Positions 3,282 through 22,797 of a stretch of DNA of 44,326 nt are shown one piece after another; position 1 is the stretch's first letter; each line of letters opens with the position of its first letter. Origin of the DNA: an uncultured bacterium (GTDB taxonomy: Bacteria; Hydrothermota; Tepidihabitantia; Tepidihabitantales; Tepidihabitantaceae); contig CAZQFS010000004.1 in assembly GCA_964592755.1 (NCBI GenBank), positions 1 through 44,326 of the forward strand, read 5' to 3'. Under the pieces are notes generated by a model. The model made no database searches. It worked only from the letters and a program-made list of their open reading frames with translations, and was not told the origin of the DNA. Position numbers and translations under genes: made by a program.

Positions 3282-4613
3282 TCAGGCGGGCGCGTGGACC
3301 AAGGGCAGCTCCTGGCGCAGCGGGATGCGGAAGTCGAACTCGGCCCACTTGCCCGGCTCAGAGTCAGCGGTGATTTCCCCGCCGTGGCGGAGGACAATCT
3401 GACGCGAGATGTAAAGGCCCAGGCCCGACCCGGTGACCGACCTGGTCTCAGGATGCTTCAGGCGCTGGAACCGGGCAAAGAGCTTCTGTTTCTGCTCGGC
3501 GGTGAAGCCGACGCCCTCATTCCAGACCGAAAACCTGGCCCAGTAGGCCCGCTGGCGGCGGCCGTCATCCGTATAGTCAAAGAACGCCCGGCGCACCAGG
3601 CGCACGACGACCCGCCCCCCTTCGCGGCCATACTTGATGGCATTGCCGAGCAGGTTGCCGAGCACGACCCTGAGTAGCGCCGGGTCGCCTGGTGCGACCA
3701 GATACTCGGCATCGGTCTCAACCTTCATCTGGCGTGCGGCCGCGGCCGGTCGGTGCAGCTCGATGACCGGCTGGAGAACTTCCTCTACCAGGTCCACGGC
3801 CGGCGCGGGCCGGTAGTTCAGCTCGCCCGACTCAATCCGGGCCAGGTCCAGGTAGTCGCGGACCAGGTCAATCAGATAGTTGCTGTTGGCAATCATGCGC
3901 CTGACCCGCTCGGCCTGCTGCGCCGGCATGGTTCCCAGATAGCCCTCAAGCAGGGTCGTGCCCAGGGTGACGATAGATGAGAGCGGCGACTTCAGCTCGT
4001 GTGCCACAAAGTAGAGAATCTCGGCGTAGTTCCGCTTTGCCTGCTCCAGGTCATCAATGTACTTGACCTTCTCGACCGCCAGAGAAAGCGATTCGGCGAC
4101 CGCGGCAAAGGTGTCGATGTGCGCCCGCTGATAGGTTTCAGGCTGCCGCGAGCTGAAGAACAGGAAGCCAATCGGCCGGCTGCCGGCACGCAACGGGCAG
4201 GTAAGGTTCGACCGGACCCCGTCATCGAGGATGTCCCGCGTGGCTTTTGAGTCGGGGTGGGCCGCAAGATACCGCTCCAGGTCGTTGATGATGCGCGGCT
4301 CCCCGGTTCGGAGAATCGGCTCCAGCGACGAGCCTTTGAGCACGGCCCAGTAGCCCTTGTCCACGCGCTTCACCTCGACCTGGCTGCGCACCCAGCGCGA
4401 TACCACCATTCCGGTCTCTTCGTTGTAGAAAGCCACCGACAAACGGTCGAAGGGGATTATCTGGCGGACCGTGTCGTAGATGACGTCCAGCACTTCGAAC
4501 AGCGACTTGCCCGAAAGCCAGAGATGCTTCAGGTCGTCAAGCACCATCTGGACCGCGGCGCTGTGCAGCCGGTCGGTCAGTTCATCGGGATGCGCATCTG
4601 TCGGTTCGCTCAT
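3282..4613 (-). CDS. Cytoplasmic GAF-domain sensor histidine kinase
   Basis: 443 aa with no obvious TM segments. H-box FVAHELKSPLSSI, N-box LLGNAIKY, G-boxes VWNEGVGF and GSGLGLYISRQIV. The N-terminal ~170 aa are GAF-like. Confidence 0.9.
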   Translation of the reverse strand: MSEPTDAHPDELTDRLHSAAVQMVLDDLKHLWLSGKSLFEVLDVIYDTVRQIIPFDRLSVAFYNEETGMVVSRWVRSQVEVKRVDKGYWAVLKGSSLEPILRTGEPRIINDLERYLAAHPDSKATRDILDDGVRSNLTCPLRAGSRPIGFLFFSSRQPETYQRAHIDTFAAVAESLSLAVEKVKYIDDLEQAKRNYAEILYFVAHELKSPLSSIVTLGTTLLEGYLGTMPAQQAERVRRMIANSNYLIDLVRDYLDLARIESGELNYRPAPAVDLVEEVLQPVIELHRPAAAARQMKVETDAEYLVAPGDPALLRVVLGNLLGNAIKYGREGGRVVVRLVRRAFFDYTDDGRRQRAYWARFSVWNEGVGFTAEQKQKLFARFQRLKHPETRSVTGSGLGLYISRQIVLRHGGEITADSEPGKWAEFDFRIPLRQELPLVHAPA

Positions 4614-5116: not shown

Positions 5117-6031
5117 TCAGAGAGTTCCCAGCAGGTTCTCGACCTTGCCTATCGCTGCGACCTCCTTGCCTCTGAGGTCGGCAAGGATGCGGGCCTTTTC
5201 GCCCGGCTCCATCTCCTTGTCCGCGACCTTGGCGAGCAGGTCGGCGATGTCCTTGTACGCCTTGCTCAATTCCAGCGCCGGCCCGGCAATTCTGAGCATC
5301 TTCTTTGCCACCTCGGCGAAGTAGTCGGCCGCCATGGCGCGACACTCAGACCAGACCGTCGCGTTCCACCAGTTGCCATGTGAGGAGCCGTGCCCGGCCC
5401 CGACCGCACGCGCCCAGTTGTCATAGGCCTTGAGCCCGATGCCGTACCGCTCGAAGCTGTGCTGCTCTGGATGCTTGAACAGGTCAATCGCATAGGCCAG
5501 GCTGTCCCGCACAGCAGTAGCGTCGTCCCTGGGCTCGAACTTCTTGAAGGTCCAGAAGGTCGCGTGGCACTCGTCCTTGAACTCCTGCCACGTACCGAAG
5601 GTCAGGGTCGCGGGCGGGAACCCGCCGCAGCAGTCGCCCCACGGCTGGGCGGTGAAGAACTGCTTGTCGTCATAGCCGTAGATGACCTGGTTCTCCATGT
5701 TGCCCAAGGCACAGGGCTGGCCTTTGTCCAGGTGCGCCCTGAGCTTCGCCTCGACTTCGGCCCGCGCCTCGGAACTCGAACTACCCTCGAAGAACCCGAG
5801 GTCAATCATGTCAAGGCCCAGGTTTCGCACGAGCTTGTAGAACGGCTCGTACTTCCAGCAATAGGGCCCGCTTGGACAGAGTTCGTCGTGGATGTTGATA
5901 AGGAACGCGTGGCCTGAACCGCCGAAGGTCCAGGCATCGCTCGTGTCCAGCTTGTAGAAATCCAGCACCGCCTTCACCACGCCCATCATGGTCGTGTTCA
6001 GGCCCGACTGCTTCAGGTTCTCAATCTTCAT
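5117..6031 (-). CDS. Hypothetical protein, 304 aa (no confident family; distant BtrH_N/DUF4872-like impression only)
   Basis: ATG preceded by AAGGAG (rc of 6036-6045). Clean, non-repetitive globular composition with no antisense competitor of known function. The C-terminal ~70 aa are predicted helical (AEVAKKMLRIAGPALELSKAYKDIADLLAKV). Confidence 0.7.
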   Translation of the reverse strand: MKIENLKQSGLNTTMMGVVKAVLDFYKLDTSDAWTFGGSGHAFLINIHDELCPSGPYCWKYEPFYKLVRNLGLDMIDLGFFEGSSSSEARAEVEAKLRAHLDKGQPCALGNMENQVIYGYDDKQFFTAQPWGDCCGGFPPATLTFGTWQEFKDECHATFWTFKKFEPRDDATAVRDSLAYAIDLFKHPEQHSFERYGIGLKAYDNWARAVGAGHGSSHGNWWNATVWSECRAMAADYFAEVAKKMLRIAGPALELSKAYKDIADLLAKVADKEMEPGEKARILADLRGKEVAAIGKVENLLGTL

Positions 6032-6252: not shown

Positions 6253-7542
6253 CTATTTCTTGTAGTGCTTGCCCAGTGCCTCGATTCGATCCGGTGACAG
6301 GAAGATGCAATCGAGAAGGTCCGCTCTTGCAGCCGCAACGTCCTCGGCGTGGTTCCTGCACTTCGGGGCGCCGCACAGCCCGCAGTTAAGCATGGGCAGG
6401 GTTCTCAGTAACTCCTCCGCCCGCTTCCTTCTCGCCACCCGCTCCCTGAGGTCGATGGCTTCTCCCTCGGTCTGGCGGGGCTTGAGCGAGCCCCTCAGGG
6501 AAAAATCCTCCAGGGCATAGCGCCGGTTCACTTCCTGCTCGAACTCGGGGCCCGGGCCGGGCATGCTGGCCATCAAGTGGAGGTTCTTGCTGCGCGCTGC
6601 ATACAGATTCTCGACCGTCAGGTTGCCCCCGATGCAGCCTCCCTGGCAGGCATTGCACTCCAAAAACTCGATGTTGCGGATTCGCCCCTTCTCGACATCG
6701 TTGAAGACCTTCATGATGTCCGAAAGACCGGTCAGGGGGAGGTAGTGTTCGCGCGCGAGCGCGGGTACTTCCTCTTCCGCAGCTCCCCAATGCAGCAACC
6801 CGACCGCGGTCACGAGGTCCTTCGGGGCCTCACCCGGTTTCGTGGCCCTGCGCATCTTCGTGAGCAGACCATTGTATATCTCTGATATGCCCACGGCGCC
6901 GTCGAGGTAGCTCTTCACTTCTTCCGCCGGCTGAAGAATGGAAATGGCCTTGGCCTGGCAGGGGGTAATGTAGATTGCCGCAATCTCGTCCGGGGCGAGA
7001 CCCAGTTCCCGGGAATACCGGCGCTTCAGCTCGCGGGCGGCGATTTCGCGTGGCGCCTCCAGGGGGATGACGTGATCAACCAGCGAGGGATACGCGACCT
7101 GGATCAGTCGGACGACCACCGGGCAGGAGCTCGATATCAACGGGAACGGTCCGGGCCATCTCTTGACGAAGTCCGTGATGGCCCGGTCAATGAGCGCGAC
7201 GTCGACGCCATACTCCCACACCGCGTCGAAGCCGATCTCCATGAGGGCTCTGCCGACATCGGCGGGAGTGTCTCCCATTCCGAATTGCATGAAGAGCGCC
7301 GGCGAGGCGACCGCCACCTTGAACTTGAACCGGTTCAGTTCGGCGAACTTGATGGTCGTCGCGGAAATGGCGCCCAGCTCACACACGCCGAGACAAGACC
7401 CGCAGTCGATGCACAACTCGGAGATTAGGCGCGCTTTGCCGTTCTTCACCCTGATGGCCTGGGTCGGGCAGGCGCGCATGCACGACATCCTGCCGTCGCA
7501 CTTGTCCGGGTCAATGCGAAAGCCGTGCCTCAGCTCAGCCAT
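6253..7542 (-). CDS. [FeFe]-hydrogenase-like protein, putative sensory type. N-terminal 2x[4Fe-4S] ferredoxin, H-cluster-like domain and a C-terminal CxxCxxxxC 'FeS' domain.
   Basis: H-cluster motif equivalents are present but altered: L1 PLISSSCP (canonical TSCCP; the first Cys is Ser), L2 ITPCQAK (canonical MPCxxKxxE; no Glu), L3 EFLECNACQGGCIGG. N-terminus has CDGRMSCMRACP and CIDCGSCLGVC. C-terminus has LPMLNCGLCGAPKC....C. Overlaps the upstream HATPase gene by 8 nt. Confidence 0.85.
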   Translation of the reverse strand: MAELRHGFRIDPDKCDGRMSCMRACPTQAIRVKNGKARLISELCIDCGSCLGVCELGAISATTIKFAELNRFKFKVAVASPALFMQFGMGDTPADVGRALMEIGFDAVWEYGVDVALIDRAITDFVKRWPGPFPLISSSCPVVVRLIQVAYPSLVDHVIPLEAPREIAARELKRRYSRELGLAPDEIAAIYITPCQAKAISILQPAEEVKSYLDGAVGISEIYNGLLTKMRRATKPGEAPKDLVTAVGLLHWGAAEEEVPALAREHYLPLTGLSDIMKVFNDVEKGRIRNIEFLECNACQGGCIGGNLTVENLYAARSKNLHLMASMPGPGPEFEQEVNRRYALEDFSLRGSLKPRQTEGEAIDLRERVARRKRAEELLRTLPMLNCGLCGAPKCRNHAEDVAAARADLLDCIFLSPDRIEALGKHYKK

Positions 7543-7972
7543 TGGCGTCCAGCCTTATTCTGGCGAAGACCCGCGTACCCTTGCCCACCTCGGATTCGAT
7601 GCGGAATTCGTCGGAGTTCTTCTTCATGTTCGGCAGGCCCATGCCGAATCCGAACCCCAGCTCGCGCATCTCGTCCGAGGCCGTGGAATAACCCTCCTGC
7701 AGCGCCTGGTTGATGTCGGGAATCCCCGGGCCTTCGTCGTCGATTTCCAGGCTGATATCCTCGTCGGTCAGCGTCAGCGTCAGCGTTCCCCGCTGGGCGT
7801 ACATGACGACGTTCATCTCTCCCTCGTACGCGACGATTACCGTGCGCCGGGTGTTCACGGCGTCAATGCACAGGTCGCGGAGCATGACTTTGATTTCACT
7901 CGAGACCTCGCCGGCCTTTTCGAAGTTCCTCCCTTGGATCCCGAAGCTCTCTCGAAGCAGTTCCGCGGGCAT
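7535..7972 (-). CDS. HATPase_c-only protein (RsbW/anti-sigma-factor-type Ser/Thr kinase-like)
   Basis: Start moved to the ATG at 7972 (MPAELLRESF...), 5 nt after the DRTGG stop. The ORF-track start at 8020 would overlap that gene. Bergerat-fold motifs EGEMNVV, DDGPGIPD and GFGFGMGLPN. Confidence 0.8.
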   Translation of the reverse strand: MPAELLRESFGIQGRNFEKAGEVSSEIKVMLRDLCIDAVNTRRTVIVAYEGEMNVVMYAQRGTLTLTLTDEDISLEIDDEGPGIPDINQALQEGYSTASDEMRELGFGFGMGLPNMKKNSDEFRIESEVGKGTRVFARIRLDANG

Positions 7973-7977
7973 CGGCG

Positions 7978-8322
7978 CTAGGACACTCCTTTGAGCCCCT
8001 TGCCGTAAAGCACGCCGCAAATGTCGAACATGCCCATCCCGGTCACGAGCACCGGAATGTGCTTCTCGCGGGCGAAATCGACGACTTTCTGGTCGGGCAG
8101 CTTGCCCCGGCAGTAGATGACGGCGCTGACCCCGGCGATGTCGGCCGTCCGTATCGACTGGATGTTGGTCAGCCCAGTAACCATCAGTTCCTTCGACCTG
8201 GCAAAGGCCAGTATCTCACTCATGCCGTCCGAGGCAACAACCTGGGTGACGTCGACCTGCAGGTCGTCCCCCTGGGTCAGGACTTCACACTGGAGCAGGT
8301 CCCGGATTTCGCCGAGCGTCAT
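7978..8322 (-). CDS. DRTGG-domain protein
   Basis: 114 aa. LMVTGLTN...AVIYCRGKLPDQKVVDFAREKHIPVLVT matches the DRTGG-domain pattern as I recall it. A paralogue lies at 15490-15816 in the same operon. Confidence 0.72.
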   Translation of the reverse strand: MTLGEIRDLLQCEVLTQGDDLQVDVTQVVASDGMSEILAFARSKELMVTGLTNIQSIRTADIAGVSAVIYCRGKLPDQKVVDFAREKHIPVLVTGMGMFDICGVLYGKGLKGVS

Positions 8323-8324
8323 GC

Positions 8325-9740
8325 TTACTCCCCATTCGTGAGGTGCTTGTGCATGGCGGCCGCGGCGACCCTGCCGTCGCCCATGGCGCTGATTACCGTC
8401 GCCGCTCCGCGAACGATGTCGCCGCCGGCCCAGATTCTCGGCCGGGATGACCTGGCCGTCTCCGGGTCGGTGACAATGCCGCCCTTCTTGTTGATCTCGA
8501 GCCCCGGCGTGGTCAGGGGGATGAGCGGATTGGGGCTGTTGCCAATGGCTATGACCACGGCATCAAAGGGAACGCGGAAGTTGGAGCCTTCGACCGGAAC
8601 CGGCTTGCGCCGGCCCGAGGCATCGGGTTCGCCGAGTTCCATCTTCTGGCACTCAACCTCCTTGACCCAGCCGTTCTCGTCGCCGACCAGGCGCAGCGGC
8701 AACGTCAGGAGGTCGAAGATGACGCCTTCCTCCTCGGCGTTCTCCGCCTCCTCTACCCGGGCGGGCAGCTCGGCCCGGCTGCGGCGGTAGACGAGGTGCA
8801 CTTCTGCCGCGCCCAGGCGAACGGCGGTGCGGGCCGAGTCCATGGCCACGTTGCCGCCACCAACCACGGCCACGCGGCATGGCCTCTTCACCGGCGTCTG
8901 GTATTCGGGGAAGCGGAACCCTTTCATCAGGTTCACGCGCGTGAGGTACTCGTTGGCCGAATAGACGCCGTTCAGGTTCTCGCCCGGTATTCCCATGAAC
9001 CAAGGCAGGCCGGCGCCGGAGCCAACGAAGAGCGCATCGAACTCCTCAAGCAGCTCGTCCACGGTCCTCGTCTTGCCCACAATGAAGTCAGTGATGATGC
9101 TCACGCCAAGACTCTTGACGTACTCCACCTCACGGCGGACGATCGCCTTGGGCAGCCGGAACTCCGGAATCCCGTACGCGAGCACGCCGCCGCATTCGTG
9201 CAGCGCCTCGAAGATGGTCACCTCGTGGCCGCGGATGACGAGGTCGTTGGCCACGGTGATTCCGGAGGGACCGGAACCGACAACGGCAACCTTCTTCCCG
9301 GTCCTGGGAGCCATGTCCGGGACCTCGGTCTTTCCTTCCGCGGCTTCCCAGTCCGCCAGGAATCGCTCGAGCCGGCCGATGGCGACCGACGCGCCCTTCT
9401 TGCCCAGGATGCACATCTTCTCGCACTGCTCTTCCTGGGGGCAGACCCGGCCGCAGATGGCCGGCAGGGCGTTCGTCTCCTTGATTTTCCTCACGCCCGC
9501 GCCGAACTCGCGCGCGACGATAAGCTTGATGAAGCCGGGGATGTCGATGCCGACCGGACAGCCCTGCCGGCACAAGGGCTTCTTGCACTGCAGGCAGCGG
9601 GAGGCCTCGGTCAGGGCCGTCTCGACCGGGTAGCCGAGCGCGACCTCGTCGAAGTTCCGAACCCGCTCCAAAGGGTCCTGCTTCGGCATGTGCTGCCGTT
9701 CGACCTTCGGCGTTGGCTTCTGCTGCCGCTCCTCAACCAT
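8325..9740 (-). CDS. NfnB / SudA / GltD-like NAD(P)H-dependent FAD oxidoreductase, large subunit
   Basis: 471 aa. N-terminal Cys clusters CLQCKKPLCRQGCP and CGRVCPQEEQCEKMC. Dinucleotide fold KKVAVVGSGPSGITVANDL, second fold VAVVGGGNVAMD, C-terminal GGDIVRGAATVI. Confidence 0.9.
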   Translation of the reverse strand: MVEERQQKPTPKVERQHMPKQDPLERVRNFDEVALGYPVETALTEASRCLQCKKPLCRQGCPVGIDIPGFIKLIVAREFGAGVRKIKETNALPAICGRVCPQEEQCEKMCILGKKGASVAIGRLERFLADWEAAEGKTEVPDMAPRTGKKVAVVGSGPSGITVANDLVIRGHEVTIFEALHECGGVLAYGIPEFRLPKAIVRREVEYVKSLGVSIITDFIVGKTRTVDELLEEFDALFVGSGAGLPWFMGIPGENLNGVYSANEYLTRVNLMKGFRFPEYQTPVKRPCRVAVVGGGNVAMDSARTAVRLGAAEVHLVYRRSRAELPARVEEAENAEEEGVIFDLLTLPLRLVGDENGWVKEVECQKMELGEPDASGRRKPVPVEGSNFRVPFDAVVIAIGNSPNPLIPLTTPGLEINKKGGIVTDPETARSSRPRIWAGGDIVRGAATVISAMGDGRVAAAAMHKHLTNGE

Positions 9741-9755
9741 TGCTCGTACTCCGCA

Positions 9756-10589
9756 TCAGAAGTGCGACTGGCAGCTCGACCGGCGCAGCGGGTCGACCTC
9801 CTCGGGATTGTAGCTCCTGCGCCGCGCGAGGAATTCCTGCCAGTCGATCTCGTGCCCGTCGAAATCCGGGCCGTCGACACAGGCGAACTTGGTCTTGCCT
9901 CCGACCGACAGGCGGCAGACGCCGCACATGCCCGTGCCGTCGATCATGATCGGGTTCATGTTGACAATCGTCTTCCAGCCCAGAGGCCTGGTGGCCATGG
10001 AGACGCGCATCATCTGGAACGTGCAGCCGTTGACGACGACAAGCTGGGGCGCGATTCCTGCCCGCTGCACCAGCTCGGGCAGCTTGTCGACGTGCCCTTT
10101 CTGGCCCTTGGTGCCGTCCCGCGTGATGACGAAGAGCTTGTCCGACACGCCGGCCAGCCGGTCTTCCCAGTACAGCAGGAAGGAACTACGCGCCTCCACC
10201 AGCGTGTAGACCTTGTTGCCTGCCTCCTTGAGCGCCCGGGCGATGGGGTAGATGGAGCCGATCCCATAGCATCCGCCGACGCAGAGGACCGTACCGACAT
10301 TCTCGATTACGGTCTCTTTGCCGAGCGGCCCCGCGAACGTCGGAATCTCGTCGCCGGGCTTGAGACGCGCGAGCCGGGCCGTGGACCCGCCGACCTGCAT
10401 GAAGATCATAGTCACCGTGCCGGCCTCGCGGTCCCAATCGGCGACGGAGAGCGGGACACGCTCGCCGTTCTGGTCGGCCCGCACGATGACGAAGTTACCC
10501 GGCTTCACGGACCGCGCCGCCGCCGGTGCGTGCACGGTGAACTCGTGGAGGTTCGGGACGATCATCCGTCGTTCAACGACTCGGTACAC
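9756..10589 (-). CDS. NfnA / SudB-like FAD/NAD(P)-binding 2Fe-2S subunit
   Basis: 277 aa. FNR-like fold (PGNFVIVR, RVPLSV, CVGGCYGIGSIYPIA). C-terminal cluster motif GTGMCGVCRL...FACVDGP. Confidence 0.9.
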   Translation of the reverse strand: MYRVVERRMIVPNLHEFTVHAPAAARSVKPGNFVIVRADQNGERVPLSVADWDREAGTVTMIFMQVGGSTARLARLKPGDEIPTFAGPLGKETVIENVGTVLCVGGCYGIGSIYPIARALKEAGNKVYTLVEARSSFLLYWEDRLAGVSDKLFVITRDGTKGQKGHVDKLPELVQRAGIAPQLVVVNGCTFQMMRVSMATRPLGWKTIVNMNPIMIDGTGMCGVCRLSVGGKTKFACVDGPDFDGHEIDWQEFLARRRSYNPEEVDPLRRSSCQSHF

Positions 10590-10598
10590 GTACTTCCT

Positions 10599-13124
10599 CT
10601 ATGTTCTCCCGACGGGTGACCGTGAGACGTCTGCCCACGTCGGGTTCTGTTCGAGCCGGTACAGCGGCCAAAGTGCGCGGCGGTGCGCGAGCCCGCCGAA
10701 TACGAACGGCCGCGTGTAGTACACGACGCCTTTCGGGCATTCGATGTTCGACTTGGCCGGACCCGAGGCAGTGACCGCTCCATTGTCCAGCGACACGACA
10801 ATCTCATCGCCGTCCGCCAAGCCGAGGGCAGCAATGTCCTCGGGATTCATCCGGAATCCCTCTTCCAGGGCCAGCTCGGCGAGTCCTCCTACCTTCGACG
10901 AGATGTCAATGCCGCGGTGGCGGTAGCCGGCTGGCTCAGCCACCAGCAGGAAGTCGCCCTTGCCCTGGGCCGTGGTTTTGGATTCTGGATTTGGGATTTG
11001 GGATCTTGCAGCATGCGGCCTCATCCGTCGCGGCATCCGGTCAGGCCGGACCGGGAAATCGCTCACCGCCCGGTGGATATCCTCGGCGACATCCTCTCGC
11101 GTTCGATAGTCCATTCCCGAATGCTGCAGAGCTTTGGCCAGGTCAGAGAAGATCCGCCAGTCAGGGCGCATGAACCCGGCCACAACCCCTTCCGTCGGGC
11201 TCTCGATTGGGACGATCTCCTGTACCCGGCCCTCCATGTTGACGAGAGTTCCGCCGGCCTCGGCAAAGGAGGCCGCCGGCAGGAAGGCGTCGACCCTGAA
11301 AGGAGGGAGGTAGGTATCCTGGACGACTAGGAAATCGCAGTCCGGCCGATCAAGGAAAGGAACGTCGCCGACAAGGTGCAGCACCTTCGGCCGCTTCGCA
11401 CTGCCCGCGATGCCCGCGAGGCCGAGGCCTGCTCCCTTCCGGGGCGCACCGCCCGGGCCCGCTTCCGGGAAGACCCCCATCTCCAGCGCCCCTCGAGTGT
11501 TGGCGCCGAAGTACAAGGGGACTAAATTCGTGTCCGAACGGGCGGAGAGAGTCGCCAGGCTGGCGGCGAGCTCGTCGGTACTGGCGCAGTGGAAGACCTG
11601 CGGCCCGACAATCACCGTCAGGGACTTGGACGAGGAGATGATATCGCGCACCCGGGTCAGGGCTTCCACATCCACCGAGGCATGCTTCGCCACCAGTGAC
11701 GTATCGGACGGGCGACCGGCGAGGCTGTCGGCGAGGAAGCCGAGCAGCAGCGCCTCCGTGCCCGGCACGGGACGAAGCCAGTCGTCGGTATAACGGGCCA
11801 GATTGCTGTCGCGGGCATCGATGGTCACCAACCTGGCTCCCCGGTCGAGCGCCTTGCGCACCTTCGTGCCCACCACCGAGAAGTTGAAGCGGCTATCGAG
11901 CCCGACAGCCAGAATCACGTCGGCCCGGGCGATTCCGTTGATCGAAATGGGCACCGAGAAGAGCTCTGACCACAAGCCCAGTCCTCCCGCAAGTTCCATC
12001 CGCGCGGTTGAGTCGATGCCGTCCGAGCCGAGGCATTCCCGGACGAACTTCTGCGCCGCGAAGAGGCTTTCGTTCGTGAGGTCCGGCGAGACGAGCATCA
12101 GGAACTCCTCGGGGCGAATCCCCTTCAGCTCGCCGGCCACTTTCTCCAGGACCTCCTCCCACGAGACCTGCCGGAAATAGTCGCCCTTCTGGAGCATCGG
12201 CCACTTCGCCCGTTCGAAGTGGTGAGTCACTTCCGGCAGACAGAATCTGCCCTTGACGCACAACTGCCCGTCGTTGACCTCCGGGTCCAAGTTAGCCCTG
12301 GCCTTGGACAATCGGCCGTCTTTGTGGTCCAGCTCGAGCTGGCAGCCGACCGGGCAGAACGGGCATGTCGATGTGCGCGAGCCGTCCGGCTTGCCGTCCC
12401 ACTTTGATGCCTTGTCGGCCAGGGCGCCGGTCGGACAGACATCCACGCAGGCGCCGCAGAACTCGCAACCGGCTCCGATGTGGCTGCGACCGAAGGCCGG
12501 GCTGACCTTGGCTCGCGGCCCGCGATAGCTGAAGGCCAGCACGCCGGTCCCCCGGACTTCCTGACACATCCGCACGCACCGGCCGCAGAGGATGCAGATG
12601 TTGTAGTCACGGTCGTAGAAGGGGTCGTCGTGCTCGGGTTCGTAGCCGTGGTAGTAAATCGGGTAGTCGATCTCGGTCAGGCCGATCTTCTCCACCAGGG
12701 TCTGCAGCTCGCACTGGCCGTCATTCGGGCAGAAACGGCAGCCGGTCGTCACGCCGGTCTTGCGAATCGTCCCCTGATAGTCCCGGCACTCGTCCTTCTC
12801 GCCACAGACGAGGCAGCTCGACGGATGCTCGCTCAAGATGAGCTTCAGGATCTCGGCCCGCAGTTCCCTGAGCGTCGCCGTGTCGGTCAGTACCTTCATC
12901 CCTTCCCGGGCGACCGTGCTGCATGAAAGGGGGTAGCCGCGCATCCCTTCAATCTCCACCATGCACAGCCGGCAGCCGCCGAAGGGAGAGAGGTCCTTGT
13001 GGGAACAAAGGGAAGGAATGTAGACCCCGGCGAGCTCGGCGGCGCGGTGGACGGTCACGCCCTCGGGGAAGGACACGTTCCGGTGGTTCACTTCCATTGT
13101 CAGCGTGCGTGGCTCTTGAACCAT
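10599..13124 (-). CDS. NuoG/HydA-N-terminus-like multi-FeS subunit with a cofactor-less (vestigial) molybdopterin-oxidoreductase domain
   Basis: 841 aa. 2Fe-2S site (C40, C51, C54, C68). HPSSCLVCGEKDEC plus a second CRFCPNDGQCELQ. CILCGRCVRMC, CEFCGACVDVCP, MopB cluster CPFCPVGC...LCVKGR. At the position of the formate-dehydrogenase ARV(U/C)H active site the protein reads ARMEL. Confidence 0.85.
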   Translation of the reverse strand: MVQEPRTLTMEVNHRNVSFPEGVTVHRAAELAGVYIPSLCSHKDLSPFGGCRLCMVEIEGMRGYPLSCSTVAREGMKVLTDTATLRELRAEILKLILSEHPSSCLVCGEKDECRDYQGTIRKTGVTTGCRFCPNDGQCELQTLVEKIGLTEIDYPIYYHGYEPEHDDPFYDRDYNICILCGRCVRMCQEVRGTGVLAFSYRGPRAKVSPAFGRSHIGAGCEFCGACVDVCPTGALADKASKWDGKPDGSRTSTCPFCPVGCQLELDHKDGRLSKARANLDPEVNDGQLCVKGRFCLPEVTHHFERAKWPMLQKGDYFRQVSWEEVLEKVAGELKGIRPEEFLMLVSPDLTNESLFAAQKFVRECLGSDGIDSTARMELAGGLGLWSELFSVPISINGIARADVILAVGLDSRFNFSVVGTKVRKALDRGARLVTIDARDSNLARYTDDWLRPVPGTEALLLGFLADSLAGRPSDTSLVAKHASVDVEALTRVRDIISSSKSLTVIVGPQVFHCASTDELAASLATLSARSDTNLVPLYFGANTRGALEMGVFPEAGPGGAPRKGAGLGLAGIAGSAKRPKVLHLVGDVPFLDRPDCDFLVVQDTYLPPFRVDAFLPAASFAEAGGTLVNMEGRVQEIVPIESPTEGVVAGFMRPDWRIFSDLAKALQHSGMDYRTREDVAEDIHRAVSDFPVRPDRMPRRMRPHAARSQIPNPESKTTAQGKGDFLLVAEPAGYRHRGIDISSKVGGLAELALEEGFRMNPEDIAALGLADGDEIVVSLDNGAVTASGPAKSNIECPKGVVYYTRPFVFGGLAHRRALWPLYRLEQNPTWADVSRSPVGRT
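10974..11008. repeat. Imperfect heptanucleotide tandem repeat x5 inside the NuoG-like CDS
   Basis: GGTTTTG GATTCTG GATTTGG GATTTGG GATCTTG on the plus strand. It encodes ...RSQIPNPESKT... on the minus strand. Locally AT-rich compared with its flanks. Confidence 0.7.
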
Positions 13125-13127
13125 GGC

Positions 13128-14999
13128 TTATGACTCGATGATAATGGCGTCTCCGGCGATGGCGTCGAAACGACAGACCTCATAGCAGGAGCGGCACTTG
13201 ATGCACTTGGATTGGTCGAGGTTGTGCGGCTCGGACCTAGGACCGGTGATGGCGCCGGTCGGGCACACCTTCACGCAGCGCTGGCAGCCTGTACATTTCG
13301 AGGGGACGACTCGATACACGACGAGGTTCTTGCAGGTCACGGCCGGACAGCGTTTGTCCTTGACATGAGAGATGAACTCGGGCCGGAAGTACTTGAGAGC
13401 GGAAAGCGCGGGGTTGGGGGCGGTGGTGCCCAAGCCGCAGAGCGACCCGTTCTTGACCGTCCGGCCGAGCTTCTCCAGCTTGTCCAGATCCGAGAAGTCG
13501 GCCTTGCCGTCGCATATCCGCTCGAGTATCTCCACCATGTGCCGCGTCCCGACGCGACAGGGAACGCACTTACCACACGACTCCCGTTGAGTGAAAGTCA
13601 GGAAGTACTTGGCCATGTCGACGATGCAGGTGCTGGAATCGACCACGATGAGGCCCCCGGAGCCCATGATCGCCCCGGCCTCGGCCAAGTGCTCATAGTC
13701 GATGGGCAGATCCAGGAACTCCTCCGAAAGGCACCCTCCGGAGGGCCCTCCGCTCTGGACCGCCTTGAACGGCTTCTGAGTTCCGCCGCCGATATCGTAG
13801 ATGACTTCCCGAAGGGTAGTGCCGAGCGGGACCTCGATCAACCCTGTCCGCCTGACTTTGCCGACAAGGGAGAAAGTCTTGGTCCCTCTGCTCGTTTCGG
13901 TCCCGTAACCGGCGTACCACTCCGCCCCGTTACGGAGGATGTTGGGCAGCGTGCCGAGCGTCTCGGTGTTGTTGATGATGGTGGGTCTGCCCCGGAGCCC
14001 GGAGACGGCGGGAAAGGGCGGACGCGAGCGGGGCATGCCGCGTTTCCCTTCAATCGAGGCGATGAGCGCGGTCTCCTCGCCGCACACGAATGCCCCGGCG
14101 CCTTCTTTGATCTTGATGTCGAAGCTGAAATTGGACCCAAGGATATTCTGACCGAGGAGGCCGACCTCGCGCATCTGGGCCATCGCCTTTCGGAGTCGCT
14201 TGATTGCCAGGGGATACTCCGCCCGAATGTAGACGTACCCGTGAGCGGCGCCGATGGCGTAGGCCGCGATGAGCATCCCTTCCAGGACGGCATGGGGGTC
14301 GCCCTCGATGAGGGAGCGATTCATGAATGCGCCCGGGTCACCTTCGTCGGCGTTGCAGATGAGACAGCGCTCGCCGTTCTGCTGGTCGCGGCAGGTGGCC
14401 CACTTCCGCCAGGTCGGGAAACCGGCCCCCCCGCGTCCGCGAATGCCGGCCCGTTTGACCGTATCCAGCACCTCCTGCCAGGTCATGGACAGGCACTTCT
14501 CGAACCCCCGGTAGCCGTCCCTCGCCAGGTAGTGGTCGAGGTCGTCCGGGTCAATGAGGCCGCAGTTCCGGAGCACAATCCTGACTTGCGGTTTCAGCAT
14601 CGGCAGGTCGAAGAAGCGGGGGACTCCATCAAGCTCGCCCTCCCCGAAGTGTCCGGCGAGGTGATACTTCGGTATCTCGCCCACCTCGAAGAACCCCTTG
14701 AGGATTGGCACCACGTCCTTCGCCGCGACGTTGGAGTAACTGATTCGCGGCCGGCCCGGCATCTGGACGTCCATCAGGGGCTCCAGATAGCAGGGGCCGA
14801 TGCACCCGACCGGGACAATCCTGGCGTCGAGCTGGTGCTGCTTCAGGTACTCCTCGACGGCGCTCTGCGTGTCCGCCGCGCCAGCGGCCAGCCCGCACGA
14901 CCCGGCGCCGATGTAGATGAACGGGACAGGGCTCTCGCGGAGAGCGTCCCACCTGGCCTGCGCCTGCCGGCGGCGCCCGTCAATCGCTGCGGTCTTCAT
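13128..14999 (-). CDS. NuoF/HydB-like NADH- and FMN-binding subunit with N-terminal thioredoxin-like domain and C-terminal 2x[4Fe-4S] ferredoxin
   Basis: 623 aa. GRGGAGFPTWRKW, EGDPGAF, N3 cluster ESCGKCVPCRVGT...C. C-terminal CTGCQRCVKVCP and CIKCRSCYEVC. Confidence 0.92.
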   Translation of the reverse strand: MKTAAIDGRRRQAQARWDALRESPVPFIYIGAGSCGLAAGAADTQSAVEEYLKQHQLDARIVPVGCIGPCYLEPLMDVQMPGRPRISYSNVAAKDVVPILKGFFEVGEIPKYHLAGHFGEGELDGVPRFFDLPMLKPQVRIVLRNCGLIDPDDLDHYLARDGYRGFEKCLSMTWQEVLDTVKRAGIRGRGGAGFPTWRKWATCRDQQNGERCLICNADEGDPGAFMNRSLIEGDPHAVLEGMLIAAYAIGAAHGYVYIRAEYPLAIKRLRKAMAQMREVGLLGQNILGSNFSFDIKIKEGAGAFVCGEETALIASIEGKRGMPRSRPPFPAVSGLRGRPTIINNTETLGTLPNILRNGAEWYAGYGTETSRGTKTFSLVGKVRRTGLIEVPLGTTLREVIYDIGGGTQKPFKAVQSGGPSGGCLSEEFLDLPIDYEHLAEAGAIMGSGGLIVVDSSTCIVDMAKYFLTFTQRESCGKCVPCRVGTRHMVEILERICDGKADFSDLDKLEKLGRTVKNGSLCGLGTTAPNPALSALKYFRPEFISHVKDKRCPAVTCKNLVVYRVVPSKCTGCQRCVKVCPTGAITGPRSEPHNLDQSKCIKCRSCYEVCRFDAIAGDAIIIES

Positions 15000-15441
15000 C
15001 GAGTAGCTGTTGGACCTTCAGGACCGACATCTGGCTGTGGAACTTGTCGTCGAAGGCGACCACGGGAGCCAGGGCACAGCAGCCCAGACAGGCAACACGT
15101 TCGAGGTCGTACTTCCCGTCGGCGGTCGTCTCGCCGGTCTTTATGTTCAGGCGCGCTTGAGTCATGGCGAGAATCTCCTCCCCGCCCTTCACGTGGCAGG
15201 CGGTGCCGAGACAGACCTTGACATGGTGTCGACCCGGAGGGTGGAACCGGAACTGGGCATAGAAGGTCGCGACCCCGAAGATCTCATTCTCGGATATCTT
15301 CATCCATCGGGAGATGCCACGAATGGCATCCGGACGCAGGTAGCCGTCCTGGGCCTGCAATCGCTGCAGAACGGGGATAAGATCCTCTCGCTCGCCCTTG
15401 AATTCCTGCCGAATCGCCGAAATGCCGTCGCCAGAAGTCAA
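14980..15441 (-). CDS. NuoE/HydC-like 2Fe-2S subunit
   Basis: 153 aa. VCLGTACHVKG ... CLGCCALAPVV (Cx4C...Cx3C). Overlaps the NuoF-like start by 20 nt. Confidence 0.9.
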   Translation of the reverse strand: MTSGDGISAIRQEFKGEREDLIPVLQRLQAQDGYLRPDAIRGISRWMKISENEIFGVATFYAQFRFHPPGRHHVKVCLGTACHVKGGEEILAMTQARLNIKTGETTADGKYDLERVACLGCCALAPVVAFDDKFHSQMSVLKVQQLLDEDRSD

Positions 15442-15489: not shown

Positions 15490-15816
15490 TCATCCGATCT
15501 TGAGATCGCAGAGTCTCTTGGCCAGGCTCCAAGTGTCGCCGTCGTAGCCAAGCAGTCTTATTCCGGCTTTGCTGGCCAGTGCAACCACGTCGGCGGCGGG
15601 GACCCTGTTGCGGGAGAACACCACCGCCGCCACGTCGACGAGATTGGCGGCGGCGATCAGGTTCTTGTGGGTTTGCAGGGTTATCAGCAAATGCCCCTCT
15701 TTGATGCCGACGATGTCGCTCACCATGTCGGAGATGTAGACTCCCATGATCTCTTTGTCGGCGCCCTCGTTGAAGGTCCTGAGGCCCGTCTTATTGACCA
15801 GTTCGGATACTTTCAT
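15490..15816 (-). CDS. DRTGG-domain protein (second copy)
   Basis: I used the internal ATG at 15816 (MKVSELVNKTG...). The 119 upstream codons of the track ORF overlap the preceding gene and are Arg-rich junk. HLLITLQTHKNLIAAANLVDVAAVVFSRNRVPAADVVALASKAGIRLL parallels the protein at 7978-8322. Confidence 0.7.
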   Translation of the reverse strand: MKVSELVNKTGLRTFNEGADKEIMGVYISDMVSDIVGIKEGHLLITLQTHKNLIAAANLVDVAAVVFSRNRVPAADVVALASKAGIRLLGYDGDTWSLAKRLCDLKIG

Positions 15817-16373: not shown

Positions 16374-16611
16374 AGGTACTCCCGCGTCTGGTCTAAGAAA
16401 AGCACCATATCATAGGGATTCTAGTAGCCGCGGGATGGCGTGTCAAATGGACGGGCCGTGCGCCCCACCGGACAGGCCAAGTCGAGGGTCGTGTCCGGCA
16501 GCAACGCAATACGCCGGGAGTAGCGATGCAGGCGCACCCGGAACGCTCGGCAATCAGGGGTGCTCGCGACTCGTTGCTTGACGCGGCGGTGTGCTGCGGG
16601 CACAATTGGGC

Positions 16612-19717: not shown

Positions 19718-20106
19718 CAGCACGGTCCGTGGCTGGCCGGGCCGAGAGGTATGCCAGCGCCGTGCAGTCTCAAAGATGCTGTGTGTCCTGGTGCAGGTTT
19801 CCACCAGTCGTCTTGCTTCGGTCGGGTTCATAGAGCATGCTTCCTCGCAGGATATGTCCACTGCCGGCGGTCCTTTCTGGCTTGCTTGCAGAGCTCAGCC
19901 ACTGAGGATACACCGGCTCTCTTCAACCATCGGGTCAGCGGTTCGCCGGCCTGACCCTGGTAACGATGTCCTGGCCCACCGACCTAACGCGATTGACATC
20001 CGCCATGAGGTCTTCTATCATTAGACAAGATGGCTGGAGCCGGCTGCGTGACAACCGGTTTGGCCTTTGTTGTAATCATGCCCTACCCAAGCTCAGGAGG
20101 AATCTG

Positions 20107-22797
20107 ATGCCCTCAAGAATCGTAGCTGCCCTTGTTGTCGTTTCCGCCGTAGTCTCGGCCTGGCCGAATTACCACCGGCCCGCGGTGACCGCTCCAGACG
20201 GCGAGATGTGTGTCTCTGGCCAGGTGATTCTGCAACTGAACCAGTCCCAGCGCGGCAAGGTCAGCTTGTCGTCCGCGGACAGCATTGCGCTGTTCGGCAT
20301 TCCGGCTCTGGATATGCTGAGCCGGCATCTGCGGGTGGACGACATCACCCAGTTGTACCGTCATCCCCGCCCCAGCGCAAGCGCCAAGGCGCTCGGCTGC
20401 GACCTGCAGTACGTGGTTCAGTTCGACGAGCGGTTCGACGTCGGACAGGCCATCGAGCTGTACCAGTCCCTGCCCGAAGTCGAGCACGTCTGCCCGAACG
20501 CTCTGATGAAGATGGACGAAACCCCGAATGACCCGCTGTTCGTTTCGCAGTGGCACCTGACAAAGATTCAGGCCCCGGCCGGCTGGACCCTAGGCAAGGG
20601 TGACACCTCGGTCCCCAACATGGTCGTAGACGACGGCGGCGACTGGCTGCATCCCGACCTTGCCGACAACATGTGGATTAACCACCCCGAGGATATCAAC
20701 GGCAACGGTCGGTTCGACACGCTCTGGGACCCGGACGGCGACCTCGACGGCATTGACCAGGACGGCAACGGCTACACCGATGACGTCATCGGCTTCGACA
20801 TGGTCGATGGCGAGCCCAACCCGATGCCGATTGCGCCGGACAACCACGGCTCACACTGCTTCGGCAACGTCAACGCGGTAACCAATAACAGCGTCGGCGT
20901 GGCCGGCGTAACCTGGAACAACCGCTCGGTCAACGTCCGCTGCGGCGGCGGCGGCTACGTCAATCTCGGCGCGGCGATGGCTGCCATCTACTACGGAATC
21001 CCGCTGAATGTCTGGGCCTACTCGATGAGTTTTGGCGGCTCGACCCGCTACGAGCCGATGGCCACCGCCTGCCTCGAGGCCTGGAACTCGGGCGCCGTGC
21101 TCTTCGGCTCTGCCGGCAATGAGGGACTGGAGCGCATGCGCTACCCGGCCTGCTATGACGGCGTCGAATGCGTTGCCGCGTCCGGCCAGGGCGACACCAA
21201 GGCATCGTTCTCCAACTATGGCGAGTGGGTCGACCTGACCGCGCCCGGGGTCAACATCTACACGACCGTGACCCGGGCCACCGGCAACTACGGGGCGATG
21301 GACGGCACGTCAATGTCATGCCCGATGGCCGCGGGCGTGGCGACCTGGGTCAAGTGCTGGCTGCCGTCCGCCTCGAACCAGACCGTGCTCGACATCATGC
21401 ACGCGGCCTGCGACTCGATGCCCGACCAGCTCTATCGCGACGGCAAGCTCGGTGCCGGCCGCATCAACATGGCGCGGGCAATCATGCCCAGCTTTCTCTG
21501 CGACCTGCGCATTTCGAACGTGCGGTTCAGCGATGCCTCGGGCAACAACAACGGCCGGCCTGACCCGGGCGAGGTGGTCGGCGTCATCGTCACCTATGCC
21601 AACACCGCGGGCTGGCGTGACGCGACCGGCGTATCGGCCACCCTGGCCTGCGGCGTGTCCGGCGTCGAGGTAACCAAGAGCTCGGCCACGTTCCCCGACA
21701 TTCCGGCCGGTGCCAGCGGCAACTGCTCGGCCGACTCGTTTGTCGTCTCAATTGCCGAATGTGTGCCGCCCCAGAATCTCAGGCTGCTCTTCACGGCCCG
21801 TGCCAACCCGGCGCCGGCCTACCCGGACGAAGAGTATGTTGTCCAGGCCGGCGAGCCGCGCGTGCTGATTGTCGATGACGACGGCGGCTCAGACTTCGAG
21901 AAGTACTACAAGGCTGCCTGTGACTCCAATGGCGTGCTCTATCACACGTACACGGTGCAGACCTCGGGCTCGCCTTCGGCCGAAACCCTCGCGCACTACC
22001 CGGTAGTGTTCTGGTTCACCGGCAACGATAACTCGACCACGCTGACATCCACCGACATCGCCAATCTCACCACTTACCTGAACTCCGGCCGCAATCTGCT
22101 GCTGTCGGGCCAGAACATCGCCGAGGACATCAATGGCGAGACGTTTCTCTCCGAGTACCTCCATGCCGAGCTGCTCGAGGACTCAACCGGCAAGCCCTAT
22201 CTGGTCGGGCTTGAGGGCGACCCGATTGCCGAAGGCGACACGATGGTTCTCGCCGGTTCGGGCGGGGCCAACAACGGCCGGCACATGGACGGCATCCGGC
22301 CGGTCGGCGGCGCACGCGGCGGAGCCTTCTACAAAGACTACTCGGACACGACAACATACTCGCTGATTCACTACTCGGGTTCATACAAGCTCGTCTTCTT
22401 CGCGGTTCCGTTCGAGGCGATTGACCACTCGGCCAGTCGTTACCTGCAGAAGTGGACCCTGGTCAGCCGAATCCTCCGGTTCTTCGGTGAACGCGTGCCC
22501 GGGGTCGAGCAGCCCATTCCTCAGCCGCGTCTGAACCGGCCCTATGCCATGAACATCACCCCCAACCCGTTTGCCCGCACGGCCACGGTCCGGTTCGTGG
22601 CACCGGTTACCGGCACGGTGACGCTCAATGCCTACGCGCTGAGCGGCCAACTGGTCGGCAGCCAGTCACGGCCGGTTCAATTCGGTGAGGATACCGAGTT
22701 TCGCCTTGACGGCACGAACCTTGCCAACGGCGTCTACCTTGTACAACTGGTGACGACCGACGGCGTCTACGCCCAGAAGGCGGCCGTGCTGAGATAG
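20107..22797 (+). CDS. Secreted subtilisin-family (S8) serine protease with T9SS C-terminal sorting domain
   Basis: AGGAGG lies 6 nt upstream of the ATG at 20107, followed by a signal peptide (MPSRIVAALVVVSAVVSA). Catalytic triad contexts VVDDGGDWLHPDL, HGSHCFG and GTSMSCPMAAG. The C-terminus (GTVTLNAYALSGQLV...LANGVYLVQLVTTDGVYAQKAAVLR) matches the T9SS type A CTD. Confidence 0.9.
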   Translation: MPSRIVAALVVVSAVVSAWPNYHRPAVTAPDGEMCVSGQVILQLNQSQRGKVSLSSADSIALFGIPALDMLSRHLRVDDITQLYRHPRPSASAKALGCDLQYVVQFDERFDVGQAIELYQSLPEVEHVCPNALMKMDETPNDPLFVSQWHLTKIQAPAGWTLGKGDTSVPNMVVDDGGDWLHPDLADNMWINHPEDINGNGRFDTLWDPDGDLDGIDQDGNGYTDDVIGFDMVDGEPNPMPIAPDNHGSHCFGNVNAVTNNSVGVAGVTWNNRSVNVRCGGGGYVNLGAAMAAIYYGIPLNVWAYSMSFGGSTRYEPMATACLEAWNSGAVLFGSAGNEGLERMRYPACYDGVECVAASGQGDTKASFSNYGEWVDLTAPGVNIYTTVTRATGNYGAMDGTSMSCPMAAGVATWVKCWLPSASNQTVLDIMHAACDSMPDQLYRDGKLGAGRINMARAIMPSFLCDLRISNVRFSDASGNNNGRPDPGEVVGVIVTYANTAGWRDATGVSATLACGVSGVEVTKSSATFPDIPAGASGNCSADSFVVSIAECVPPQNLRLLFTARANPAPAYPDEEYVVQAGEPRVLIVDDDGGSDFEKYYKAACDSNGVLYHTYTVQTSGSPSAETLAHYPVVFWFTGNDNSTTLTSTDIANLTTYLNSGRNLLLSGQNIAEDINGETFLSEYLHAELLEDSTGKPYLVGLEGDPIAEGDTMVLAGSGGANNGRHMDGIRPVGGARGGAFYKDYSDTTTYSLIHYSGSYKLVFFAVPFEAIDHSASRYLQKWTLVSRILRFFGERVPGVEQPIPQPRLNRPYAMNITPNPFARTATVRFVAPVTGTVTLNAYALSGQLVGSQSRPVQFGEDTEFRLDGTNLANGVYLVQLVTTDGVYAQKAAVLR

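Follow-up and report, generated by a model that had tools for sequence, protein, structure and literature searches.

Group D (M2e) [FeFe]-hydrogenases are still described as 'functionally undefined' (Cell 2024, PMC11216029). Their genes are known so far from positions upstream of trimeric bifurcating hydrogenases, often with a kinase gene in between (PMC3561251, PMC8163306), as for TamHydS of Thermoanaerobacter mathranii, which is encoded upstream of HydABC. The latest study of TamHydS closes with the statement that its interaction partners must be identified (PMC13104023). The group C (M2f) sensors TmHydS, R. albus HydS and T. saccharolyticum HfsB are likewise encoded beside signalling proteins and bifurcating enzymes. 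Here we analyse a 44,326-nucleotide stretch of DNA from an uncultured bacterium of the Hydrothermota (contig CAZQFS010000004.1, positions 1 to 44,326; hereafter the window), in which a HydS-like protein is encoded at the end of an operon for a Bfu-type bifurcating complex.

The last three of the ten genes of this operon encode a DRTGG protein (DRTGG-2), a small SpoIIAB/RsbW-like HATPase (the kinase) and the HydS-like protein, and are referred to below as the trio. Apart from the HydS-like open reading frame (ORF), no hydrogenase gene and no maturase gene was found anywhere in the 44-kb window, and the operon contains no gene for an H-cluster or [NiFe] subunit. The same trio was found in other genomes beside Bfu complexes with an [FeFe] or a [NiFe] site, as well as beside complexes of the kind encoded here. 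We tentatively propose, as a reading that is plausible but short of probable, that DRTGG-2, the kinase and HydS form one signalling unit which, together with a second DRTGG protein (DRTGG-1), would regulate the Bfu-type bifurcating complex encoded between them. The open literature that was searched gave no link between DRTGG proteins and hydrogenase sensors, and nothing relevant on a sensory hydrogenase with Bfu or transhydrogenase; sensors, kinases and DRTGG proteins go unmentioned in the Bfu survey of Schut 2022.

The HydS-like protein and its family

Group D/M2e proteins are marked by a Cx2Cx4Cx16C motif, the lack of a PAS domain, a residue other than Cys at C299, a hydroxyl residue in place of M353 and the loss of the Glu E361 (Land 2020, PMC8163306). 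In the HydS-like protein, the C-terminal tail carries C387/C390/C395/C412 in the spacing Cx2Cx4Cx16C (PF04060 FeS, 9.9e-9). No PAS domain is detected by Pfam, and the 429-residue chain ends 17 residues past its last Cys. The proton-relay Cys (C299 in CpI) is replaced by S139, the Glu of MPCxxKxxE (E361) by S201, and M353 by T193, in a column that holds Thr in 28 and Ser in 18 family members. Most of the family has Ala in place of C299, and the Ser seen here is specific to its clade. A sequence-only reading of the window had pointed to the four H-cluster cysteines, to the lost relay Cys and Glu and to a C-terminal four-Cys domain, all of which are confirmed in the ORF translation. It had also called the protein a group C/D-type sensor; the sensory type is retained, since the hallmarks are present, but group C is not, because a PAS domain is lacking, and the protein is assigned to group D (M2e). 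Every group D/M2e hallmark that can be read from a sequence is thus found, which supports a predicted sensor-type rather than catalytic-type paralogue.

The H-domain is recognised by Pfam (Fe_hyd_lg_C, 1.2e-26) and is accompanied by an N-terminal 2x[4Fe-4S] domain (C15/21/25 with C44/47/50/54). The H-cluster ligands C140 (SSSCP), C195 (TPCQAK) and C299/C303 (CQGGC) are invariant among 53 family members; together with the next Pro and the L3 GG, they are invariant or nearly so among 53-80 diverse members. The CN-binding Lys (K198) is Lys in 37 of the 53 members and Arg in 8, and is mostly kept in sensors linked to Nfn-type or NiFe-type complexes.

Turnover by TamHydS needs the group D-specific residues E252 and E289 (Cabotaje 2023, PMC10407848). 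E258 and E295 of the window protein align with these two positions, the 'GGE' Glu and the 'FxE..AC' Glu, in alignments of 53-80 relatives, where the TamHydS motifs were inferred from primer sequences given in PMC10407848 and the loop alignment near 256-258 is less certain. FeFe-linked sensors have an invariant Ala139 and GGE, and the E252-equivalent is often Gln, Val or Ile in Nfn- and NiFe-linked sensors. All eight cluster cysteines are invariant across the FeFe-, Nfn- and NiFe-linked sensors. Frequent loss of this Glu from proteins whose cluster cysteines do not vary and whose CN-binding Lys is mostly kept argues against a high-flux catalytic role. Such a pattern is compatible with H2 being bound, but not turned over, at an H-cluster.

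To our knowledge, no structure of a group C or D [FeFe]-hydrogenase has been solved. An AF2 model of the HydS-like protein built on a deep alignment reached a pLDDT of 91.6; a model from a shallow alignment (33 sequences, 66-92% identity; pLDDT 49.8) was set aside. The only matches of the deep-alignment model in the PDB are [FeFe]-hydrogenases (CpI, DdH, HydA), with TMq values of 0.62-0.68, E ~1e-19 and ~19% identity. The family comprises 275 representatives (50% clustering, E < 1e-30), and the nearest homologues lie in metagenome bins of Krumholzibacteriota (81% identity) and Aminicenantes (71%). With a hidden Markov model (HMM) of the HydS family alone, the window protein scores 525 bits and HydS homologues 450-600 bits, against 41-90 bits for group A3 HydA proteins encoded nearby and 136-190 bits for two further H-domain proteins among the neighbours.

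TamHydS shares with the window protein the 2x[4Fe-4S] domain, the H-domain, the Cx2Cx4Cx16C tail, the lack of PAS, the non-Cys residue at C299, the hydroxyl residue for M353, both proton-path glutamates and an adjacent small HATPase gene. However, the window protein is ~35% identical to Firmicutes members, has Ser instead of Ala at C299 and reads 'EEE' instead of 'GGE', and its partner operon is without hydrogenase: along with NfnAB and a Cys-rich protein, it encodes a BfuCBA set whose FdhF-like domain is dead. The group C sensors share the lost group A relay and the C-terminal four-Cys motif, but they have a PAS domain and PP2C phosphatase or histidine kinase partners, whereas the window protein has no PAS and lies beside a SpoIIAB-like kinase and DRTGG proteins. 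The HydS-like protein is a member of a known family (group D/M2e with kinase) in a new, widely conserved setting.

The kinase and DRTGG partners across genomes

One genome per GTDB species was scanned with a 12-sequence alignment as the query, which gave 577 confirmed relatives, and the best 80 loci were kept. The annotated set consisted of these best 80 of the 577 together with loci L001 and L002 and the window, and was searched by phmmer and HMMs with the window's own proteins. L001, on a 4.28-Mb contig, and L002, on a 636-kb contig, contain the same ten genes in the same order. As this ten-gene synteny recurs on unrelated contigs, the observation is not due to chance. In the conserved operon of the window and these two same-order relatives, no DNA-binding or sigma-factor gene was found.

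In 73 of 82 loci, HydS is immediately preceded by the kinase gene, and in 67 the kinase gene by DRTGG-2. In the window, the end of the kinase gene at 7535 overlaps the start of HydS by 8 nt, and the stop of DRTGG-2 at 7978 is followed after a 5-nt gap by the kinase ATG at 7972; both spacings had been noted in the sequence-only reading and are borne out by the ORF coordinates. An 8-nt overlap is also the commonest kinase-HydS arrangement elsewhere (14 loci), followed by a 4-nt overlap (7 loci). Between DRTGG-2 and the kinase, overlaps of 4 nt (17 loci) and 1 nt (13 loci) are the commonest, and the remaining spacings within the trio are gaps of 0 to ~250 nt. Fusions were found as well: DRTGG-2 and the kinase form a single ORF in 7 loci, and the HydS family representatives include one HATPase-HydS fusion (P0157), two DRTGG-HydS fusions (P0128, P0218) and five HydS-DRTGG fusions. 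DRTGG-1 corresponds to a 108-aa DRTGG gene in L001 and L002 and is conserved beside Bfu genes in all types of context.

The kinase has intact ATP-binding boxes N (EGEMN), G1 (DDEGPGIP) and G2 (GFGFGMGLPN), which are conserved across 80 homologues. Among proteins of solved structure it comes closest to SpoIIAB (1til), a Ser kinase and anti-sigma F factor of similar size, and its best NCBIfam match is spIIAB (TIGR01925), at 52 bits for a cutoff of 135. With SpoIIAB-SpoIIAA and RsbW-RsbV the window module shares the ~145-aa kinase fold, the intact ATP boxes and an adjoining small partner gene. However, a DRTGG protein stands in the place of the STAS partner, there is no linked sigma factor, and the input would be a hydrogenase-like protein. 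Neither in the operon nor conserved near the module in related loci was a STAS or sigma-factor gene found. The earlier label 'RsbW-like HATPase' is upheld, and the conserved neighbours of the kinase are DRTGG genes.

Three main kinds of Bfu context were seen. The trio accompanies [FeFe]-type HydABC in 12-13 Firmicutes loci, where HydA has TSCCP-type L2/L3 motifs, MPCxxKKxE and CPGGCxxGGGQ. In ~8 loci the context is of NiFe type, with a 590-aa BfuA without H-cluster followed by MvhD and the NiFe small and large subunits, and was confirmed by Pfam in L019 and L013. The Nfn type, to which the window belongs, was found in ~20 loci from at least six phyla, with loci labelled Planctomycetota, Aminicenantes, Thermoleophilia, Bacteroidales, Desulfuromonas and Fibrobacteraceae. 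Another molybdopterin-type BfuA lies beside the trio in 2 loci, and many loci have no Bfu gene within reach of the trio. In a neighbour-joining tree of HydS (no bootstrap), the proteins group by partner class.

Several loci show arrangements of their own. In L019 (9207-20465), L013, L018, L020-L022 and L034, labelled Acidobacteriota, Ignavibacteria and some Clostridiales metagenome-assembled genomes (MAGs), the genes of a [NiFe]-type Bfu hydrogenase come after the group D trio, so that the sensor is of FeFe type but its partner enzyme of NiFe type; between the trio and the NiFe-Bfu genes are those for a PHP-domain protein and for another HATPase, which is larger. L025 (5671-19734) carries two complete sensor sets, the second being a DRTGG-2/kinase/HydS/DRTGG-1 quartet between BfuC and BfuB. 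In L001 (11431-21290), a 77%-identical relative, the next genes after HydS are those of a group 4 [NiFe]-hydrogenase cluster of Mrp/Mbh-like type, with HycI, and H2 is therefore part of the metabolism of that lineage. An orphan HydS homologue with 50% identity was found in L011 (10001-11263), on a 1.4-Mb Actinomycetes contig; not even tblastn detected a gene for the kinase, a DRTGG protein or a Bfu subunit within 10 kb of it. In L015 (minus strand, upstream of the trio), L040 and L042, a BfuB-like protein is fused to an NfnB/GltD-like domain, which makes another NADPH-to-Bfu link. The operons of L010 and L008, from MFD long-read MAGs, are split into many short ORFs; these look like the result of assembly indels and not like pseudogenes. 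The radical-SAM (S-adenosylmethionine) candidates in the 83 loci proved to be BioB, spore photoproduct lyase, lysine aminomutases, NirJ-like and HdrC-like proteins, with no maturase among them.

The Bfu-Nfn complex and its operon

The sequence-only reading had described the adjacent NuoEFG-like complex as being without an H-cluster subunit, and this is upheld for BfuA, in which Pfam detects no Fe_hyd_lg_C or H-domain. The domains identified in BfuA are [2Fe-2S], His-ligated [4Fe-4S], 2x[4Fe-4S] and molybdopterin-oxidoreductase-like. The catalytic Cys-His of Rhodobacter FdsA ('CARVCHSPTG') aligns to 'TARM-ELAGG' in BfuA. The score of BfuA with the formate dehydrogenase (FDH) family model TIGR01591 is 177 bits, for a cutoff of 666, and the NuoG model is likewise far below its cutoff. 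The lost Cys-His and the sub-cutoff TIGR01591 score rule out that BfuA is a real formate dehydrogenase. As the Cys-His is absent and both models stay below cutoff, the molybdopterin-like domain would be an inactive scaffold, as in StnC, which carries such a domain (PMC10482914).

BfuB has the FMN/NADH site, the B1 cluster, the N-terminal cluster domain and the C-terminal 2x[4Fe-4S] according to Pfam and Cys motifs, and aligns end to end with the BfuB subunits of 9bov, 8oh5, 9n5u, 7t2r and 7q4v. Its best PDB matches are Caldicellulosiruptor NfnABC (9bov_B, 761 bits), S. ovata StnABC (8oh5_B, 726 bits) and archaeal Nfn-Bfu (722 bits). The NfnA- and NfnB-like subunits both score above the cutoffs of their family models (Table 1) and match 5jca_S and 4ylf_B over their full length, NfnB with 552 bits to 4ylf_B compared to 265-336 bits for the corresponding Stn/NfnABC domain (Stn 265). 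Pfam finds no Pyr_redox or Fer4_20 domain in BfuA (841 aa). The operon does not encode a fused Stn/NfnABC, because the NfnB-like protein is a separate gene product nearer to canonical NfnB.

The predicted partner of the trio is thus a Bfu-type core with a complete canonical NfnAB pair. StnABC of Sporomusa ovata and NfnABC (Caldicellulosiruptor; archaeal Nfn-Bfu) are the nearest in BfuB and BfuC and have the same NuoG-like scaffold with an inactive FdhF-like domain, and this likeness implies NADP(H) as the third substrate. However, they carry a GltD/NfnB-like domain inside BfuA and have no NfnA, whereas the window encodes a separate full-length NfnB and an NfnA. Both Nfn subunits of the window closely resemble those of NfnAB/NfnSL (T. 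maritima 4YLF, P. furiosus 5JCA) over their full length (552 and 249 bits), but NfnAB of the window type always lies directly after the BfuA gene, in a Bfu operon with the sensor module. From homology and synteny we infer an uncharacterised NfnAB-BfuABC enzyme that would handle NAD(H), NADP(H) and ferredoxin, and that would not be a hydrogenase, because BfuA appears catalytically dead and the NfnAB pair is canonical. The predicted five-subunit assembly of NfnA/NfnB and BfuA/B/C (8325-15441, minus strand) resembles a 'split Stn' with an extra NfnA, and has no counterpart among the Bfu types of Schut et al. 2022, who list Nfn-Bfu as a fused form.

Nfn-type loci show three gene orders, in which the blocks [Cys-rich, DRTGG-1], [DRTGG-2, kinase, HydS], [BfuC, BfuB] and [BfuA, NfnA, NfnB] are reshuffled but never split; BfuA-NfnA-NfnB is contiguous in every related Nfn-type locus. 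Homologues of the Cys-rich protein encoded by the first gene (~176 aa; L001 1044-1586, L003 130-651, L023 8249-8764) lead 16 Nfn-type loci and are absent from FeFe- and NiFe-type loci. Their conserved motifs are H..W, G, E, F..E, Y..G.H.W, Q...F.L.C and YF. The cysteines are not all conserved (L014, L073), so the protein is not an obligatory metal-cluster protein.

Table 1. Genes of the window operon, minus strand, transcribed from 16373 to 6253, with the sensor trio as the last three genes; the candidate promoter is listed first.
Feature	Coordinates	Strand	Position and evidence
Sigma-70-like promoter TTGACA-17-TAGAAT (11/12)	16418-16446	-	~45 nt 5' of first gene; consensus match only
Cys-rich protein, 176 aa	15843-16373	-	gene 1; no Pfam/NCBIfam match
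DRTGG-1, 108 aa, start MKVSELV	15490-15816	-	gene 2; weak PF07085 match
BfuC/NuoE-like [2Fe-2S] subunit	14980-15441	-	gene 3; PF01257 2e-46; Cys77/82/118/122
BfuB/NuoF-like FMN subunit, bifurcating type	13128-14999	-	gene 4; Pfam and PDB matches
BfuA/NuoG-like FeS subunit, 841 aa, with predicted inactive formate-dehydrogenase-like domain	10599-13124	-	gene 5; Pfam
NfnA-like small subunit, FAD/[2Fe-2S]	9756-10589	-	gene 6; NF004862 339 bits; 5jca_S 249 bits
NfnB-like large subunit, GltD-type, NADPH/FAD/2x[4Fe-4S], 471 aa	8325-9740	-	gene 7; TIGR01316 574 bits
DRTGG-2, 114 aa, opens sensor trio	7978-8322	-	gene 8; PF07085 1.6e-7
SpoIIAB/RsbW-like HATPase, 145 aa	7535-7972	-	gene 9; HATPase_c 2.9e-11; 1til 3.6e-8
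HydS-like group D (M2e) putative sensory [FeFe]-hydrogenase paralogue, 429 aa	6253-7542	-	gene 10; Pfam, motifs, AF2 fold

The spacing between genes within the operon ranges from -20 to +48 nt. Unlike in L001, HydS is followed in the window by an unrelated 304-aa ORF (5117-6031, minus strand), which has no Pfam match and is missing at that position in relatives, and then by a two-component system. The latter consists of a GAF-HisKA-HATPase sensor kinase and a stand-alone receiver protein (1492-1875 and 3282-4613, both minus strand), with a beta-propeller repeat protein between the two; these genes show no sign of belonging to the operon and are not conserved in L001 or L002. Elsewhere in the window, the gene at 19966-22797 (plus strand) encodes a subtilase whose Por_Secre_tail domain is a sorting signal for type IX secretion, which would agree with an origin in the FCB group, for instance in Krumholzibacteriota. 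The GC content is ~64% across the window.

Possible functions of the trio

In the proposed signalling unit, the HydS-like protein would bind an H-cluster and report H2 pressure and so the ferredoxin/proton redox poise. Protein-protein contact would relay its state to the small ATP-binding kinase, which may act on a DRTGG partner in a partner-switch manner, and the output would adjust the activity or the assembly of the BfuBC core, here with its dead BfuA and canonical NfnAB. We infer for this that an H-cluster is made, that H2 is the signal, that a DRTGG protein is partner or substrate of the kinase and that the output is post-translational. The concept is that of HoxBC-HoxJ-HoxA, the regulatory [NiFe]-hydrogenase system of Cupriavidus necator, where a slow hydrogenase paralogue and a kinase report H2; however, the metal site and the type of kinase are unrelated, and that system controls hydrogenase genes only. 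Beside [FeFe]- or [NiFe]-type Bfu complexes a catalytic HydS is not needed, because these complexes carry their own catalytic module, and since an identical module is found there, the simplest view is that it has the same regulatory job here.

Several points weigh against this proposal. We know of no experiment that shows sensing for any group D enzyme, nor of a phospho-acceptor in DRTGG proteins, and BLASTP detects no similarity between DRTGG-1 and DRTGG-2 of the window. A radical-SAM motif scan followed by NCBIfam found no hydE, hydF or hydG in the window or in the 83 locus flanks. Control by H2 of an NADPH-linked enzyme is argued from physiology alone. Many Firmicutes trios have no Bfu gene within 10 kb, and the link between trio and Bfu genes is therefore frequent but not obligatory. 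Finally, the C-terminal cluster of TamHydS does not respond to H2 (PMC13104023), and TamHydS itself turns over H2 slowly (PMC8163306).

The sequence-only reading had offered three alternatives: that sensing of H2 or redox state controls a non-hydrogenase bifurcating enzyme, that the protein is the hydrogenase module of the complex, and that it is a sensor with a different ligand. The first is now the best supported, as the trio also accompanies FeFe and NiFe complexes, and the other two are weakened. If HydS were the H2-activating subunit, docked on BfuA like the NiFe SL subunits in NiFe-HydABCSL, the operon would encode a split bifurcating hydrogenase coupling H2 to NADP(H), NAD(H) and ferredoxin with NfnAB. 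BfuA has no catalytic site of its own, and NfnAB is complete and potentially self-sufficient, so that no redox-active candidate module other than HydS is left. The genes of the trio lie between the structural genes for NfnB and BfuC in L003 and L005. The low but real H2 turnover of TamHydS (PMC8163306) fits such a role, and neither of the group D proton-path glutamates is lost from the window protein, which has Ser at the C299 position. We nevertheless consider this improbable, given that the same trio accompanies complexes which already have FeFe or NiFe catalytic subunits and that HydS stays with the kinase (73/82 loci), being fused to kinase or DRTGG domains and not to Bfu subunits. Moreover, the E252-equivalent is Gln or Val in many Nfn-linked sensors, BfuA-NfnA-NfnB is always contiguous, and the nearest matches of BfuB are in Stn and NfnABC, which are Bfu enzymes of NADPH type. 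Slightly less likely still is a HydS-BfuABC-NfnAB supercomplex, in which a bifurcating Bfu and a confurcating Nfn would be wired so that H2 couples directly to NADP(H), with the kinase and DRTGG proteins as a built-in phospho-switch.

A regulatory HydS might also lack the diiron subcluster and sense ferredoxin or NAD(P)H redox state, or another ligand, through [4Fe-4S] clusters only. The lack of hydEFG genes in the window and the 83 locus flanks and the loss of the catalytically essential Glu from many Nfn- and NiFe-linked members would agree with this. The enzyme regulated here would not use H2, and group C1 'hydrogenases' without H-cluster motifs occur in a survey of Hydrogenedentota (PMC11406978). 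Yet the H-cluster cysteines, the Pro and the L3 GG are invariant or nearly so among 53-80 members, K198 is mostly Lys, and these residues are kept in the Nfn clade too, a pattern that selection on the [2Fe] site would produce; the group 4 NiFe cluster after the L001 operon further places H2 in the metabolism of that organism. A sensor of this type is in our view unlikely. We are equally doubtful that the kinase is a true anti-sigma factor like SpoIIAB or RsbW, in which case the module would act on transcription of the operon, by way of a sigma factor whose gene lies at another place in the genome. Of all solved homologues, an anti-sigma F factor of the same size is indeed the closest, spIIAB is the best NCBIfam match, and earlier genomic papers assumed transcriptional control of hydrogenase operons (PMC3561251). 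However, the spIIAB match is far under the family cutoff, no sigma, STAS or DNA-binding gene is conserved beside the module in any type of context, and the fusion partners of the kinase and of HydS are DRTGG domains.

Near-invariant synteny and fusions thus name the SpoIIAB-like kinase and two DRTGG proteins as candidate partners of a group D sensor, and the locus makes the role and partners of group D hydrogenases directly testable. The analysis also points to a widespread NfnAB-BfuABC enzyme. The module goes with the BfuBC core for each type of third substrate, be it FeFe, NiFe or NfnAB-linked without hydrogenase. A bifurcating enzyme that is not a hydrogenase joins the candidate targets of hydrogen or redox sensing. 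Its recurrence across many phyla suggests that 'sensory hydrogenases' control bifurcating enzymes generally and not hydrogenases alone. If this is true, H2/redox sensing would feed into the control of NADH/NADPH/ferredoxin balancing, beyond hydrogenase expression, and electron-bifurcating enzymes may be under kinase control.

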